A stretch of 64,000 bases of DNA from Thermoplasmata archaeon UBA61 (GTDB lineage Archaea > Thermoplasmatota > Thermoplasmata > Lutacidiplasmatales > UBA184): assembly GCA_002503985.1 (NCBI GenBank), contig DASW01000003.1:221394-285393 (forward strand). Direction: 5' to 3'. A model generated the notes under the pieces. It ran no database searches. It was not told the DNA's origin and saw only the letters and a program-made list of their open reading frames with translations. Positions 2,619-55,457 of this stretch are shown here, in pieces. Position numbers and translations under genes: made by a program. The stretch's first letter is position 1; the number at the start of each line of letters is the position of its first letter.

Positions 2619-2978
2619 CTAGAGCGACCTCTCGACGATCTGACCGAGCTCTTTCGAGATCAGGTCCACGATGTTCTTCGTCAGCGCGTGCCGCACGTCG
2701 GGCGGGAGCGCCGAAAGCCCGAGCCGGGCGGTGGCCGTGCCCACGCGCATGAGCGCGGCGTACTCGGTCGCCCTTGCCGCGAGGAGGTCCTTCACAGCGT
2801 CCTTGAGGTCCTGGGCGAGCTTCGGGTCCTCTTGGAGGGTCTTCTCGAGGTGCCGACGGATCTCGTCCTTGACGATGTCGCGCGTCGCCTCGCGGACCAG
2901 CTCTTCGGGGCGAAGCAGGTCGGTCGTGCTCTTCAGGAGCACGTCGATCGGTCCACCGGAGGACGAGTCCTCGGCCAT
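2619..2978 (-). CDS. hypothetical small helical protein
   Basis: Internal Met (MAEDSSSGGPIDVLL...) of the longer 2619..3197 ORF. The N-terminal extension was rejected because it runs through the tRNA and its promoter. Lies immediately upstream of the PAC2 gene on the same strand. Confidence 0.4.
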   Translation of the reverse strand: MAEDSSSGGPIDVLLKSTTDLLRPEELVREATRDIVKDEIRRHLEKTLQEDPKLAQDLKDAVKDLLAARATEYAALMRVGTATARLGLSALPPDVRHALTKNIVDLISKELGQIVERSL

Positions 2979-3107
2979 CGGGCGGCAAAGTCCGGTCGGA
3001 GGGATAAGCGTTTGGCTGGCCCATCGACCCGAGCCGAGGCCTTCCCCCGCTCCCGACGGGGATTCGGGCCCGGCGCGCCCCCGGCGGCCCACGGGTCGGA
3101 GGAAGGG

Positions 3108-3114
3108 TTTATCC
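3108..3114 (+). promoter_or_regulatory. TATA-like box (TTTATCC) about 27 nt upstream of the tRNA-Ala 5' end
   Basis: AT-rich box at canonical archaeal spacing from the mature tRNA 5' end. Confidence 0.35.
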
Positions 3115-3140
3115 AGACCCGAACCTCGACCCGCCGGCGT

Positions 3141-3246
3141 GGGCCGGTAGATCAGCGGAAGATCGCTACCTTGGCAAGGTAGAGGTCGCGAGTTCAAAGG
3201 GTCGGGCCGCGAGGAACGGCCCGGCCGGGGAATCTCGCCCGGTCCA
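3141..3246 (+). tRNA. tRNA-Ala (anticodon GGC) with about 34-nt non-canonical intron in the T-loop (approx. 3199..3232)
   Basis: A perfect cloverleaf is obtained when 3199..3232 is removed. Acceptor GGGCCGG/CCGGTCC carries the G3:U70 Ala identity pair. D-stem is GATC/GATC, anticodon stem CTACC/GGTAG with loop TTGGCAA, T-stem GCGAG/CTCGC with loop TTCAAAT, and discriminator A. The intron contains its own hairpin (GGGCCG-CGAGGAA-CGGCCC). Confidence 0.55.
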
Positions 3247-3329
3247 CTCCCGGTTTTCCTCTCCTATCGTTCGGCAGATGTCGACATTGGGCACCGACAC
3301 GAAGGACAGCGATTTATACCGGATGCCGG

Positions 3330-4019
3330 ATGCTCACGGCCGTGGAGGCCGACCTCCGGGAGAAGATCGCCGGCGAGGTGGTCCTGTCGCCGCATCCCGG
3401 ACGGACGCTCCGCAAGTGGCGGGAGGGTTTCGGGATCTCCCAGCGGGACCTCGCTCGACGCCTCGTGACCGTTCCCTCGGTCATCAGTGACTACGAATCC
3501 GAACGGCGCCAGAGCCCCGGAGCGGGGTTCATTCGGCGGTACGTGGAAGCCCTTATCGCGCTCGACACCGACAGCGGGGGAAAGGTCGGCGAACGCCTCG
3601 GGGTCCGTCCGCACTCGGACGGGATCCTCGGGATGCGCGAGTTCGCGGTCGCCATCCCCTTGAAGACTCTCGGCGACCGCTTGGACGCCCGGCCGGTGAG
3701 CCGTGTCGACCTGCACCGTGACATCCACGGGTTCACCGTCCTCGACGCCCCGCGCGCGATCCTCTCGATCGACGCGTCGCATTTCGTCGAGGTGTACGGC
3801 TGGACGACCCAACGCGCGCTCATCTTCTCGAACGTCAAGTACGGACGCTCGCCGATGGTGGCGATCCGGGCCCACCCGATGAAGCCCGCCGCCGTCTTCT
3901 TCGCGAACCCCGGCCGGGTCGACCCTCTCGCGATCCGCCTCTCCGAGGTCGAGAACATCCCCCTCCTCACGACGGCGCTCAGCGCGCCGGCGGTGCTCGA
4001 ACGGCTCGAGGAACTGTAG
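3330..4019 (+). CDS. HTH (XRE-like) transcriptional regulator associated with the mevalonate operon
   Basis: 229 aa. The LRKWREGFGISQRDLARRL helix-turn-helix sits directly upstream of HMG-CoA synthase, as in many archaea. A TTTATAC box lies at 3313-3319, so the true start may be a downstream GTG at 3342. Confidence 0.65.
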   Translation: MLTAVEADLREKIAGEVVLSPHPGRTLRKWREGFGISQRDLARRLVTVPSVISDYESERRQSPGAGFIRRYVEALIALDTDSGGKVGERLGVRPHSDGILGMREFAVAIPLKTLGDRLDARPVSRVDLHRDIHGFTVLDAPRAILSIDASHFVEVYGWTTQRALIFSNVKYGRSPMVAIRAHPMKPAAVFFANPGRVDPLAIRLSEVENIPLLTTALSAPAVLERLEEL

Positions 4020-10287: not shown

Positions 10288-10354
10288 ACGGGCGGGCCTG
10301 TCGGGAGTTTCCGCCCCGAACGGCCGGCGTCCGGGACCTTTGAACCCGAGTTCA

Positions 10355-10371
10355 CTGGCTTAGAAGGCCAG
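10355..10371. terminator. hairpin (CTGGCT-TAGAA-GGCCAG) followed by a T-containing tract, between convergent genes
   Basis: 6-bp stem (one G-U pair) with a 5-nt loop, located in the 137-nt convergent intergenic region. Confidence 0.2.
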
Positions 10372-10424
10372 GACTTTGTCCATGCTAAGCTACAGGCCCG
10401 GGAGCCCGACGGCTTCCGCCCTCC

Positions 10425-11018
10425 TTAATCCTTGGGTGCACGACCCTTCTGTCGGCGTCCGGCGGATGCCACGAGATGGGCGAGCCGGAGCGGCTCCGGC
10501 CAATGGCCGCGGACCGTCGAACGCTCGATGAGCCGAACGGCGTCGGCTCGAGAACATCCTACGGCGGCGGCCCGGATCGGCTGCCCGGCCGTGGGGACCC
10601 GGAACAATCGGTGCGCGCGCAGGAGCCGCCAACGGGCGTCGGCGGTACGCGGGAACCACTTCCGCAGAGCCGCCCGGATCCGCGGGAACTCCGGGGGGCG
10701 TCGCGTGACCGCAACGATCGGGACCCCGAGCTGCCGGTGGAGCGCGTCCATGTCGAGGACGTTGAAACCTCCCACGACGGCCCCGTCGAGCAGGATGGCG
10801 CGCACGCCCTCGAGGGGCCCGAGGCGTCGGACGAGCGCGACCACGCGACGCGTGCCGTCGGTGCCGTCGACCCGGACCCGGTCGGTGCGGACCGCCTCCA
10901 CGCGCTCGGGCAGCGTCAGGACCACGGCTGCGAGAGGAGCGTAGCGGTCCGCGCGGTCGAACGCGCCGTCGTCCACCCCGACAACCTGCGGGTGCGGTTT
11001 CCCGAGGGAACGCCGCAA
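10425..11018 (-). CDS. DUF99 (UPF0215) family protein
   Basis: VVGVDDGAF...ILLDGAVVGGFNVLD...WPEPLRLAHLVA matches the archaeal DUF99 pattern. A TTG at 11018 is the proposed start; the ORF track extends to 11156 with an Arg-rich N-terminus that would overlap the divergent gene by about 100 nt. Confidence 0.55.
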   Translation of the reverse strand: MRRSLGKPHPQVVGVDDGAFDRADRYAPLAAVVLTLPERVEAVRTDRVRVDGTDGTRRVVALVRRLGPLEGVRAILLDGAVVGGFNVLDMDALHRQLGVPIVAVTRRPPEFPRIRAALRKWFPRTADARWRLLRAHRLFRVPTAGQPIRAAAVGCSRADAVRLIERSTVRGHWPEPLRLAHLVASAGRRQKGRAPKD

Positions 11019-11054
11019 CGCTAAGACCCCTGATGAGGTCCGGGGAGAGCGTCG

Positions 11055-52348: not shown

Positions 52349-53224
52349 ATGCACGTCATCGGGGGAACGGCATCGACCGCGCTCGCGGAGCGGATTTCTC
52401 GCGAGCTCGGTAACGCGCCGTTCGGGATTCCGTTCACGAAGCGATTTCCTGACGATGAGATGTACGTGCGCGTCGGCGGGCGGCTCGAGGGCGAGGATGT
52501 CGTCCTCGTCCAGTCGACCCGCACGGACAACGATTTCCTCGAGCTGATCCTCCTCGAGGACGCGGTCCGCGAGGCGGGGGCGCGACGCACCTTCGTGGTC
52601 GTTCCCTACTTCGGCTACGCACGGCAAGACCGGCGGTTCTTCCCGGGAGAGCCCGTGAGCGCGCGGGCCCTCTGTCGGCACGTCGAGCTCGACGCCGATG
52701 CCGTGGTGACCGTTGACCTGCACTCGTCGCAGACCCTCACGCAGTTCACGAAGCCGGCGTTCGAAGCGAGCGGGATCCCGGCGATCGCTCGCCTCCTGGC
52801 CGAGCGCTCCCTCGACCTGCTCGTCTCGCCGGACAAGGGGGGCGTGGACCGGGTGCGACGGATGGCTCAGCTGCTCGACAAGCCGTGGTTCGCCCTCGAG
52901 AAGCGGCGCATCGACAGCGAGCACGTCGAGCTGTCCCTTCCTTCCAGCGTTCCGATGTCGGTCGAAGGAAAGAACGTCGCCCTCATCGACGACGTCATCT
53001 CGACCGGCGGGACGATCGTCGAGGCGGCCAAGCTCCTCAAGAAGAAGGGCGCAGTCGGGATCAGCGCTGCGTGCACGCACGGGCTGTTCCTCAAGGACGC
53101 CTTCGAACGAATCAAGGCGGTCGTCGGGGACGTCTACTCGACCGACACGCTCGGGAACCCCGCGGAAAAGGCCTCGGTCGCCCCGGACATCGCGCAGATC
53201 CTCCAGCGCCTCGTAGTGGGGTAG
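52349..53224 (+). CDS. prs: ribose-phosphate pyrophosphokinase
   Basis: Starts MHVIGGTAS and has the PRPP-binding VALIDDVISTGGT loop. Confidence 0.88.
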   Translation: MHVIGGTASTALAERISRELGNAPFGIPFTKRFPDDEMYVRVGGRLEGEDVVLVQSTRTDNDFLELILLEDAVREAGARRTFVVVPYFGYARQDRRFFPGEPVSARALCRHVELDADAVVTVDLHSSQTLTQFTKPAFEASGIPAIARLLAERSLDLLVSPDKGGVDRVRRMAQLLDKPWFALEKRRIDSEHVELSLPSSVPMSVEGKNVALIDDVISTGGTIVEAAKLLKKKGAVGISAACTHGLFLKDAFERIKAVVGDVYSTDTLGNPAEKASVAPDIAQILQRLVVG

Positions 53225-53238
53225 TCCGAGGACGGGCC

Positions 53239-54204
53239 GTGAACGACCCCCTACGGGCGAGCGAAGCGCGCTCGGACGAGCTGCTCGAGGTCGTTCATGA
53301 GGTCCGAAAGGCCCTCCTCGCCCGGGACGAATCACCCGCGGGGGACTGGGTCGAGCGGACCGCCGAGGAACTTCGTTCGGGACGGACCCCCGGGTGGTAC
53401 TACCCGAGCGACCCCGGAGCCGGTGTCTCCTTCTATTCCCTCAGCGGAGAGGAAGCCTATGGACACGTCCACGTGGCCGAGGGGGCCGGAGCCGTCGACC
53501 GAGGGGAACGCCTCACCGCCGCGCTCTTGGAAGGCCTGCCGACCGTGGTTCGGTCGGTCAACATCGGGTTCACCGGTCTTTCGCCCGCGCACGAAGAGGA
53601 GCTTTTGGGGCGGCTCGCAGAGCGCCCCGGGGCGACCGTCCTCGAGCGCATGGCCATGGAGCGGTCCCTCAGCATCGAGGACGGACGACCCCCCGGCCCG
53701 GTGCCGGACCAACTCTCGCTCGTCCCGATCCGCGCGGTGACGGTCGACGCGCTCGCCGACCTCGACTTCCGCTCCGTCCGCGGGAGCCCGGACGCGCTGC
53801 TGATCGGCGACCGGGTCGAGGAGTACCGCCGCGTGACCGAGGCGCTGATCGGCGGCAGCCTGGGGCGGTTCCTGGACGAAGCGTCGACCGCCCTGTACCT
53901 ACCCGACCCTCCTCGGCTCGTGGGAGCCATCCTCTCGGCCGAACGTTCCCCGCGCAAGGGGATCTTTGTGAACTTCATGGTCGACCCTGAGTTCCGACGG
54001 CGGGGCTACGGGCACTACCTGTTCCGGTGGGGATTGAGGGCCCTCTGGGCCCTCGGCTACGAGCGCGTTCACCTCTGGGTGACGGCCGCCAACGAACCGG
54101 CGCGCCGACTATACCACGAGTTCCATCTCGAACCGACCGTGCGGTCCACGATCTACCGCGTCACGCGGGAGTCCGGTCCGCCGCAACCGCATTCCGACCG
54201 GTAG
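53239..54204 (+). CDS. GNAT acetyltransferase domain protein with unrecognised N-terminal domain
   Basis: C-terminal FVNFMVDPEFRRRGYG acetyl-CoA motif. A GTG start is assumed. Confidence 0.5.
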   Translation: MNDPLRASEARSDELLEVVHEVRKALLARDESPAGDWVERTAEELRSGRTPGWYYPSDPGAGVSFYSLSGEEAYGHVHVAEGAGAVDRGERLTAALLEGLPTVVRSVNIGFTGLSPAHEEELLGRLAERPGATVLERMAMERSLSIEDGRPPGPVPDQLSLVPIRAVTVDALADLDFRSVRGSPDALLIGDRVEEYRRVTEALIGGSLGRFLDEASTALYLPDPPRLVGAILSAERSPRKGIFVNFMVDPEFRRRGYGHYLFRWGLRALWALGYERVHLWVTAANEPARRLYHEFHLEPTVRSTIYRVTRESGPPQPHSDR

Positions 54205-55457
54205 GGACAGTCCGAGGTCATCCAATCCGGGCAGGCCAGCAGGCCCGCGGGGGCCCGGTCCCGGATCGCAACGGCGAGGTCTCGGCTACGCTCTCGATAG
54301 AACCGGGAGAACGGGGTGAGCGAAGCGAACCGTAGCTCGAGGACCTGGACCCGGTCTCGGTCGACCTCGGCCCGCTCGAAACCGACCACGACGACCCCGG
54401 ATTCCGTCCCCGTGGTGGCGCACCGAAGGCCGAGCTCGAGAGCGTACTGAGGGGCCCGCGCGACCAGCTCGTCCGCCCGGAACCGAGACCACGCGCGGGA
54501 AGTCTTGATCAACAGAGGACGGCCCCGGAACCCCACCACCTCCTCCTCAGGCTCGGGCCCCCGGGCCGGCAGCCGCGCCACCTCGCCCGCCGGACCGCTC
54601 TCGAGGGCCTCGGTCAGCCGGGAATAAAGGTCCGGCGTCCACGAGGGGGGCAGTACCTCTCGAGGCGGGGGGCTCGGTGGGGGCGGGGCCGGGACGGCGA
54701 CCGGGGCGGTCCGGTCGAAGTAGGCGCGCCGGGGGTAGAGGAGCTCCCGAAAACGACCGACGGGTTCCGTGCCCTCGCTGGAGCGGGGCTCGGAAAGCGC
54801 GACACGGACCCGGTCCCGTACGTCGTCCCTCGACGAGATGGTCTCGACTTCTTCGAAGATGGCGCGGGGGGACGGCTCCTCCCGGCCGGTGCACGCGCAC
54901 ACCGATGCCTCCTCGAACTCACAGCCCCGACCGAACCAGGGACATCTCGGAAGCCGGTCGACGCGGGCCTCGGTGAGGGCCGCACGGAGCAGGTCGGCCC
55001 TTCGTCGCATCTCGGAGAGGATCGGTGGGGTCGACCGGAACACGAGGTCCACGGCCTGCACTTCGGAGACCCCCTTCGGGCCGGCGACCAGCGTGAGCAG
55101 TCGGCCGGAAGGGCGGTCGACGAGCGCGCAGTACATCCCGAGCTGCTCGACGTGGTCGGGTCGATAGGTCGGGAGGTTCGTCGGGTCGACCAGCGAGGTG
55201 GCCGTCTTGACCTCGACCGGAAGCTCGGAGAGGATGTCGATCCGACCGACGAGACCGTCCCGACGGACTCGCGCCTCGAGGGTCCCCTCGCCGGAGAGGC
55301 GAGCGCCCAGGGTCCTGTGGAGGGCGCGGCCCTGGTCGAGCCGGGCCTGACGTTCGGGAGGGATGGGAACGGCGGGTCTGACGGCCCGATAGAAGGCCCG
55401 GCGGAGGTTGATGAGGTCGGTGACCCCGACGGACCTCTTCCCGCTCTGCCGTCCCAT
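54153..55457 (-). CDS. Cas4/RecB-family-like PD-(D/E)xK nuclease domain protein with additional Cys-rich C-terminal region (orphan)
   Basis: Motifs in order: SVTDLINLRRAFY, GRIDILSELPVEVKT (D...E-x-K), HVEQLGMY (Q-h-x-x-Y) and Cys cluster CPWFGRGCEFEEASVCAC. The C-terminal 190 aa carry a second cluster, CPDWMTSDCPYRSECGCG. Start taken at ATG 55457; the track ORF extends to 55643. Confidence 0.42.
   Translation of the reverse strand: MGRQSGKRSVGVTDLINLRRAFYRAVRPAVPIPPERQARLDQGRALHRTLGARLSGEGTLEARVRRDGLVGRIDILSELPVEVKTATSLVDPTNLPTYRPDHVEQLGMYCALVDRPSGRLLTLVAGPKGVSEVQAVDLVFRSTPPILSEMRRRADLLRAALTEARVDRLPRCPWFGRGCEFEEASVCACTGREEPSPRAIFEEVETISSRDDVRDRVRVALSEPRSSEGTEPVGRFRELLYPRRAYFDRTAPVAVPAPPPPSPPPREVLPPSWTPDLYSRLTEALESGPAGEVARLPARGPEPEEEVVGFRGRPLLIKTSRAWSRFRADELVARAPQYALELGLRCATTGTESGVVVVGFERAEVDRDRVQVLELRFASLTPFSRFYRERSRDLAVAIRDRAPAGLLACPDWMTSDCPYRSECGCGGPDSRVTR

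Follow-up and report, generated by a model that had tools for sequence, protein, structure and literature searches.

Whether a tRNA gene interrupted within its T-loop can be functional, and by which process the interruption would be removed, is the question raised by a locus of Thermoplasmata archaeon UBA61. In a stretch of 64,000 nucleotides (nt) of this genome (contig DASW01000003.1, positions 221,394 to 285,393 of the forward strand, hereafter referred to as the window), positions 3141-3246 of the plus strand correspond to a 106-nt precursor of tRNA-Ala(GGC), complete once 34 nt are set aside. The analysis presented here indicates that this locus is very probably a functional tRNA-Ala(GGC) gene with a 34-nt protein-spliced intron of the bulge-helix-bulge (BHB) type, located between the tRNA positions 59 and 60.

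The original prediction had divided the locus into the usual parts of a tRNA, and each of them is read directly in the sequence where it had been placed (Table 1). The alanine identity set is present, with G3:U70 (G3143:U3243), A73 at 3246 and the GGC anticodon, and is invariant in the orthologues. The precursor folds at -57.9 kcal/mol, vs -42.0 +/- 3.3 for shuffled sequences (z = -4.9, none of the 200 shuffles being as good), and the hairpin initially noticed in the insert, GGGCCG (3204-3209) with CGGCCC (3217-3222), is real and part of a 10-bp helix (3200-3209 / 3217-3226). As had been anticipated, the tRNA is recognised only when the insert of about 34 nt is removed from the T-loop: the in-silico excision of 3199-3232 leaves a 72-nt tRNA-Ala(ggc) with a canonical cloverleaf, which is called by ARAGORN, and the uncut locus receives no call from this program, with or without its intron option. 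The check that had been proposed with ARAGORN -i, run on 3101-3300 with several settings and lowered thresholds, yielded no call, as this option models anticodon-loop introns only. The calls that it returned on related loci were rejected because the introns that they implied, hundreds to thousands of nt long and in GC-rich DNA, were implausible.

Orthologues of the gene were retrieved by two routes, through the loci carrying the neighbouring helix-turn-helix (HTH) protein gene (3330-4019; 81-92% protein identity) and through a pattern scan of species-representative genomes, which together provided 120 different versions of the Ala gene. At least 119 genomes of different species, each with the label Thermoplasmata, carry the same split gene according to the pattern scan. 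The carriers that can be placed belong to “Ca. Lutacidiplasmatales”, one of them being so named and several bearing the AcS/SubAcS names given to metagenome-assembled genomes (MAGs) in PMC9287336. Exon sequences hardly vary: 77 of the 120 genes share one and the same 5' exon, and the 3' exon exists in two variants only. The inserts, 28-36 nt long, have essentially unrelated sequences, with free loop sequence and stem length, and their conservation is limited to a GGRR motif close to the 3' end and to the first stem pair. Across the insert, the acceptor pair C5:G68 covaries with U5:A68 (CCGG/CCGG in 107 genes, CTGG/CCAG in 13, no mixed case), and both exons therefore work together as one acceptor stem. 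Upstream of the gene, A/T reaches 87-92% at -31 to -29, vs ~18% in the background, and 49-59% at -33 to -32 and at -28 (118 different orthologous upstream regions), the box being preceded by an A-rich segment at -38 to -36. This anatomy, the conservation, the covariation and the conserved upstream box are direct observations of the present analysis; the box itself is promoter-like, in agreement with what would be expected of an archaeal TATA promoter with its B recognition element (BRE). A TTT within 30 nt downstream occurs in 22 of the 118 orthologues, the terminator candidate being thus weakly conserved.

A scan for T-arm-split tRNAs revealed that all three tRNA genes of the window, Ala-GGC, Arg-TCT and Ser-GGA, carry a 59/60 intron. 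The split Arg gene recurs in 15 related loci, and the split Ser gene was found in more than 100 metagenomic contigs, with covarying intron stems. Neither the window nor ~18 kb of additional flank (~82 kb of this genome in total) yielded any further tRNA gene.

The position of these introns can be understood from the geometry of the two arms. The T-arm can imitate the anticodon arm because both consist of a 5-bp stem and a 7-nt loop, which makes the 59/60 site match the canonical 37/38 exactly in structure. As in the canonical intron (hBHBh' motif, EndA, RtcB), the four loop nucleotides next to a 5-bp stem (helix h, here the T-stem) pair with the 3' portion of the intron (helix H), two 3-nt bulges are predicted to be cut after their second nucleotide, and the intron forms a hairpin (h') whose sequence is free and whose structure is conserved. 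The canonical intron interrupts the anticodon arm after nucleotide 37, whereas that of the Ala gene lies in the T-arm after the sixth loop nucleotide (59); the fourth pair of helix H, which is A.G in this lineage, constitutes another difference.

Several measures show that this arrangement is maintained. In the 120 Ala genes, i2 and i(n-6), the latter being the seventh nucleotide counted from the intron 3' end, form precisely the first pair of the intron helix. This helix averages 5.9 consecutive pairs, vs 0.8 when the cores are shuffled and no more than 1.4 when the register is displaced by 1-3 nt, and single helix positions carry up to six standard pair types. When 142 constructs (Ala, Arg and Ser) were aligned without gaps, with the exon borders as sole anchors, 88.7% of the hBHBh' cells are paired vs 73.7 +/- 0.6 after shuffling, and the covariation score is 0.396 vs 0.143 for shuffled sequences and at most 0.142 for slid partners; none of the 500 shuffles attained either value. 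Two-sided compensatory changes affect all six intron-helix pairs, 88% of the h' cells being paired, while the T-stem is paired in 100% of its cells with two-sided changes between isoacceptors in three of its five pairs. U54, U55 and C56 form standard pairs with their partners (R, R and G) without exception, in the Ala genes (120/120) as well as in the whole set of constructs (142/142); among the Ala genes, U54 faces A in 66 and G in 54, U55 faces A in 103 and G in 17, and C56 always faces G, which is the invariant G3228 in the window. The GGRR form of the 3' motif arises because the partners in helix H are dictated by the invariant UUCA of the T-loop. The 3-4-3 register of bulges and central helix is kept in the 120 Ala genes, in 16 Arg genes (the window and the 15 related loci) and in more than 90 Ser genes. 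The suggestion of a non-canonical archaeal tRNA intron was hence borne out by a BHB-like motif at both junctions, with the same register in the 120 orthologous sequences, and the data support reading the insert as an archaeal tRNA intron of the BHB type in a non-canonical location.

Table 1. Features of the split tRNA-Ala(GGC) gene, of its predicted splice motif and of the two other split tRNA genes of the window
Feature	Position in window	Strand	Remarks
Putative promoter, purine-rich BRE-like AGGAAGGG	3100-3107	+	Proposed from sequence
Putative promoter, TATA-like TTTATCC	3108-3114	+	-33 to -27 from the tRNA 5' end
5' exon	3141-3198	+	Acceptor 5' strand through T-loop nucleotides 54-59 (TTCAAA); near-identical in 120 different orthologues
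Acceptor 5' strand GGGCCGG	3141-3147	+	
D-arm GATC / AGCGGAA / GATC	3150-3164	+	
Anticodon arm CTACC / TTGGCAA / GGTAG	3166-3182	+	Anticodon GGC at 3173-3175
Variable loop AGGTC	3183-3187	+	
T-stem 5' strand GCGAG	3188-3192	+	
T-loop TTCAAA (nucleotides 54-59)	3193-3198	+	
Helix H 5' strand, U54 U55 C56 A57	3193-3196	+	Central helix; opposite 3227-3230
5' bulge A58 A59 + G(i1), 3 nt	3197-3199	+	Predicted 5' cut 3198|3199
Intron, 34 nt	3199-3232	+	Between tRNA positions 59 and 60
Intron hairpin h'	3200-3226	+	10-bp stem 3200-3209 / 3217-3226, 7-nt loop CGAGGAA 3210-3216; minimum free energy fold
Helix H 3' strand GGGG	3227-3230	+	GGRR in 115/120 orthologues
3' bulge A A (i33 i34) + U60, 3 nt	3231-3233	+	Predicted 3' cut 3232|3233
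3' exon (U60, T-stem 3', acceptor 3', A73)	3233-3246	+	No encoded CCA
U60	3233	+	
T-stem 3' strand CTCGC	3234-3238	+	
Acceptor 3' strand CCGGTCC	3239-3245	+	U70 at 3243
Discriminator A73	3246	+	
TTTT run	3254-3257	+	8 nt past the gene; possible archaeal terminator, judged on sequence only
tRNA-Arg(TCT)	10399-10293	-	32-nt 59/60 intron 10338-10307, ending GGAAAC|U; 3' exon 10306-10293
tRNA-Ser(GGA), long variable arm	60637-60520	-	33-nt 59/60 intron 60566-60534, ending GGAGAU|U

Pre-tRNAs cleaved by EndA have 2',3'-cyclic phosphate and 5'-OH termini, and their exons are joined by RtcB. Applied to this gene, such a process would begin with transcription from the A/T box located ~30 nt upstream. 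The loop nucleotides 54-57 would then pair with GGRR, the last four structured nucleotides of the intron, to build the central helix, EndA would cut each bulge after its second nucleotide (3198|3199 and 3232|3233) and an RtcB-type ligase would join the exons into a 72-nt tRNA with UUCAAAU as T-loop. Modification of the T-loop, for which Cbf5, a possible psi55 synthase, is encoded at ~30.1-31.3 kb, would be followed by the addition of CCA, which has to be post-transcriptional because none is encoded. Group I and group II introns possess a conserved catalytic core of hundreds of nucleotides; regarding self-splicing, Rfam matched no intron family and the insert is merely 28-36 nt long.

Several points weigh against a BHB intron spliced in this way. 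The expression of the gene, the cut sites and the enzymes are deduced from the knowledge of BHB splicing. Comparison by tblastn of the window and of ~1.7 Mb of related loci with the EndA of M. jannaschii (checked against PDB 1A79) and with the catalytic half of that of A. fulgidus revealed no splicing endonuclease, and the tRNA_int_endo family is absent from the 50 window proteins compared to Pfam; EndA is, to our knowledge, universal in archaea. The sole characterised EndA of Thermoplasmata, the alpha'2 enzyme of T. acidophilum, is classed as having a narrow specificity (PMC6379350). About 82 kb of this genome are covered, and a second, uninterrupted tRNA-Ala(GGC) could be located elsewhere. 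Concerning the motif itself, A57 faces G in 115 of the 120 Ala genes (U in four, C in one), including at 3227 in the window, and the fourth position of helix H is left unpaired (A.G) in 138 of the 142 constructs, reducing this helix to three standard pairs which often include G.U. Thermodynamic folding does not produce helix H for the Arg and Ser precursors. For the Ala precursor, the minimum free energy (MFE) fold favours other, window-specific pairs of U54 with A, U55 with A and C56 with G, leaving U60 bulged, an alternative that cannot form in other species. Soft constraints forcing helix H in ViennaRNA left the MFE unchanged and gave no energy for the BHB conformer. The A57.G non-Watson-Crick pair seems to be selected in this lineage.

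The frequency of A57.G opens the way to the best surviving alternative, an intron that is real and whose motif is not a strict BHB: helix H would be too weak, the precursor would consist of the T-stem, an internal loop and the hairpin, and an EndA of broadened specificity, for instance with an extra loop or another subunit type, would be required in place of the narrow alpha'2 enzyme of Thermoplasma. For the T-arm precursors of Arg and Ser, MFE folding puts a symmetric internal loop where H would be, which is in line with this possibility, as is the splitting of all three tRNA genes, a high intron density being associated elsewhere with broad-specificity EndA variants (PMC5829648, PMC3239211). 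However, the bulges are exactly 3 nt long and their four-position spacing is kept in essentially all sequences, unlike in the relaxed motifs (HBh', hBH or BHL), both bulges being present here. In addition, the presence of R, R and G opposite U54, U55 and C56 in every Ala gene is explicable only if H forms, and the U placed opposite A57 in four Ala genes and in a second tRNA-Ser family provides a fully Watson-Crick helix H in the same register. Because of this strict constraint, and because some genes, including those of this second metagenomic tRNA-Ser family, place U opposite A57, we retain that helix H forms and regard the non-strict motif as unlikely, albeit with a real chance of being correct. 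The preserved 3-4-3 geometry fits a strict enzyme; a modified enzyme is still conceivable given the A.G position and how abundant such introns appear to be.

The exact location of the splice site could also be discussed, since the cut pairs 3196|3231, 3197|3232 and 3198|3233 all yield the same mature sequence in this window, making 57/58 and 58/59 formal competitors of 59/60. These other sites are nevertheless very improbable. The introns of other species end with C, G or U, so that cutting elsewhere would give differing T-loops, and yet A59 and U60 are invariant. A58 is invariant as well, while i1 varies (G in 85 Ala genes, C in 23, A in 11 and U in one) and the last two intron nucleotides show 11 different dinucleotides; the invariance of A59 and U60 next to variable intron nucleotides therefore places the site at 59/60. 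Moreover, only 59/60 puts both cuts after the second nucleotide of 3-nt bulges lying beside covarying helices.

The retention of the insert in the mature tRNA as an extra arm protruding from the T-loop is formally allowed, with nothing specific in its favour, and appears very improbable: a 28-36-nt hairpin at 59/60 would abolish the fold of the T-loop and the elbow formed by the D-loop and the T-loop, and the conserved features are those of an EndA substrate (two 3-nt bulges and a four-position spacer) rather than of a structural arm, the loop sequence and the stem length being unconstrained. The weakest alternative, a tRNA pseudogene that lost its function when its T-loop received an insertion, agrees with the failure of standard tRNA finders at this locus and is hardly credible in view of the strong purifying selection on exons in at least 119 species in which the insert and flanks diverge, of the precise geometry of the splice motif, of the absence of an uninterrupted tRNA-Ala(GGC) in ~1 Mb of related DNA (a sample centred on the same loci) and, above all, of the near-invariant exons, the acceptor covariation at 5:68 and the conserved promoter-like A/T box, which exclude the relaxed exons and the lost stem complementarity of a pseudogene. 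The same sample did not contain a convincing uninterrupted tRNA of any kind. Four ARAGORN calls, three of them seemingly uninterrupted genes, were discarded in its course: Pro-CGG (L021) and Arg-CCG (L090) are false positives devoid of T-loop consensus and with mismatched stems, Ala-TGC (L147) is actually a tRNA-Ser on the opposite strand, and a “Pro” with a 58-nt insert (L115) is a false call.

The BHB intron at 59/60 thereby retained for the Ala gene belongs to a mechanism class that is already known, and 59/60 is a documented BHB site. Introns at positions 57-60 had been called rare outside Thermoproteales-like lineages in the original prediction; those at 59/60 do occur elsewhere, namely in the pre-tRNA-Cys and pre-tRNA-Pro of ARMAN-2, the former being cleaved by EndA in vitro (PMC3239211). 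The site is the same as here and the Pro intron of ARMAN-2 is described as a strict hBHBh' (PMC3239211). In contrast, ARMAN-2 belongs to the DPANN phylum, its EndA is a three-unit epsilon2 enzyme of broad specificity, and its Cys intron is a 13-nt relaxed hBH, whereas the introns described here are 28-36 nt long, have both bulges and are conserved across an order of Thermoplasmata. The permuted tRNAs of Thermofilum pendens and Cyanidioschyzon merolae are also joined at 59/60 (PMC3218864), with a BHB at the junction in the same T-loop position, but in their genes the 3' half precedes the 5' half through circular permutation, and the present gene is colinear with a simple intron. Finally, Thermoproteales, Thaumarchaeota and Asgard archaea similarly have many tRNA genes split outside 37/38 and missed by standard tools (PMC8450103, PMC11291895). 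They differ by the many positions concerned, by multiple introns per gene, by often relaxed motifs and by an (alpha-beta)2 EndA with a specificity loop, while one position (59/60) and one intron per gene are seen so far in the present lineage.

Reviews generalise that the introns of Euryarchaeota occur only at the canonical position (PMC4090602). The tRNAscan-SE 2.0 survey reports, as far as the counts of its Table S7 go, 25 non-canonical introns in 6970 euryarchaeal tRNA genes, with 6 in 138 genes for Methanomassiliicoccales and 1 in 231 for Thermoplasmatales (PMC8450103). Since both orders belong to the class Thermoplasmata, these entries indicate that non-canonical introns are not unknown in this class, but they amount to ~0.4-4% of the genes in a table that gives no positions, compared with three of three tRNA genes in the window. 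The comparison with published euryarchaeal rates suggests a lineage-wide enrichment of 59/60 introns. In a full-text search of the literature, no account of T-loop introns was found for Thermoplasmata or Lutacidiplasmatales. The genomes of “Ca. Lutacidiplasmatales” (TMEG), to which the archaeon of the window apparently belongs, have ~69% G + C and a size of ~2.1 Mb (PMC9287336), the window having 69.3% G + C; tRNAscan-SE 2 was used in their description, in which introns are unmentioned (PMC9287336). We tentatively propose, as a possibility somewhat short of an even chance, that this order is an outlier among archaea of Euryarchaeota grade, in which a large share of the tRNA genes would have a single 59/60 intron, inherited order-wide, with an A57.G variant of the BHB and either a narrow alpha'2 EndA or an undescribed one.

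The interest of these introns thus resides in the lineage in which they occur, in their apparent density and uniform position, and in the blind spot that they reveal in common tRNA finders. Reviews tie ectopic introns to broad-specificity endonucleases, and a Thermoplasmata order with conserved T-loop introns provides a natural test of whether it is the position or the strictness of the motif that limits narrow enzymes. Should a narrow alpha'2 EndA be at work, a strict enzyme would tolerate the wholesale relocation of introns to the T-arm. With the T-arm mimicking the anticodon arm and 59/60 equivalent to 37/38, more than 200 natural variants are available to define the needs of the substrate.

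The two other split genes of the window escape the common tools in the same manner as the Ala gene. With the Rfam tRNA model (gathering threshold and E <= 1), the Ala and Arg genes obtain matches that are truncated or skip the T-arm, only 29.0 bits being reached by such skipping for Ala, and the Ser gene is unmatched even at E <= 1. ARAGORN also misses the Ser gene, and its sole call in the window (10322-10400, 79 nt) is the Arg gene with a false T-arm and 3' end made of intron sequence. Since none of the three tRNA genes is found with correct bounds by ARAGORN or Rfam, pipelines based on these tools would under-count tRNAs in an abundant order of soil and peat and would distort the quality scores of MAGs; the archaeal mode of tRNAscan-SE 2 is needed for such genes.

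Other split genes were met in the related DNA. The second exon family of tRNA-Ser(GGA) is represented by seven loci (L135, L137, L146, L168, L171, L176 and L211) and ~20 metagenome loci, on contigs of 65-71% G + C. Its 59/60 introns are 32-36 nt long, with a fully Watson-Crick helix H (…CCUGAA NN|U), and contain a C-box-like (C/G)UGAUGA or GUGAC and a D-box-like CUGA which might form a K-turn or K-loop. On a contig of this family (L147), the tRNA-Ser(GGA) gene at 1671-1830 of the minus strand has an uninterrupted T-loop, its 23-nt intron lying in the anticodon loop; a Ser gene split in the T-loop is located ~1.6 kb away, at the edge of the contig. ARAGORN mis-called the strand opposite to the former gene as a 92-nt tRNA-Ala(TGC). 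In other lineages, on contigs of 46-54% G + C (L136, L145, L155, L163 and L187), genes for tRNA-Ser(UGA/CGA) have T-loop inserts of 28-33 nt whose 3' ends are different (…UGAACACA|U) and do not obviously fit a simple 3-4-3 register. The distribution of T-loop introns may extend beyond this order to further uncultured archaea.

Regarding the surroundings of the Ala gene, its overlap with the N-terminus of an open reading frame (ORF), mentioned in the original prediction, is an artefact, the minus-strand ORF 2619-3197 having been over-extended to a TTG further upstream. In the same contig and in related ones, the called gene encodes 119 amino acids (aa) at 2619-2978 and ends 163 nt before the tRNA; its product has no Pfam match and is conserved beside a PAC2 gene. 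On the other side, the HTH protein has relatives on 300-550-kb contigs from peat metagenomes, the closest named ones being from “Thermoplasmata archaeon” MAGs. The window holds an archaeal core region with a ribosomal-protein operon, SecY, Cbf5, PCNA, aIF2-gamma and CysRS, and also encodes an HMG-CoA synthase / thiolase / DUF35 trio. Beside the tRNA-Arg gene, the public call at 10425-10976 on the minus strand is a 183-aa protein with the Pfam domain Endo_dU (PF01949). An ORF on the plus strand (10476-11024), picked on its third-position G + C, is without a Pfam match; the ORF on the minus strand is probably the correct one. The interval 53224-55152 (~1.9 kb) is without an ORF of high third-position G + C in a crude gene call, while public calls give a 465-aa protein of unknown family; an Rfam match to Virus-PTE at 54752-54827 was dismissed as sub-threshold (26.9 bits) and almost certainly due to chance. 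Outside the window, an IS110-family transposase (DEDD_Tnp_IS110 and Transposase_20, in two calls) is encoded on the same contig (L252, 1499-2533), ~7-8 kb upstream of the window start.

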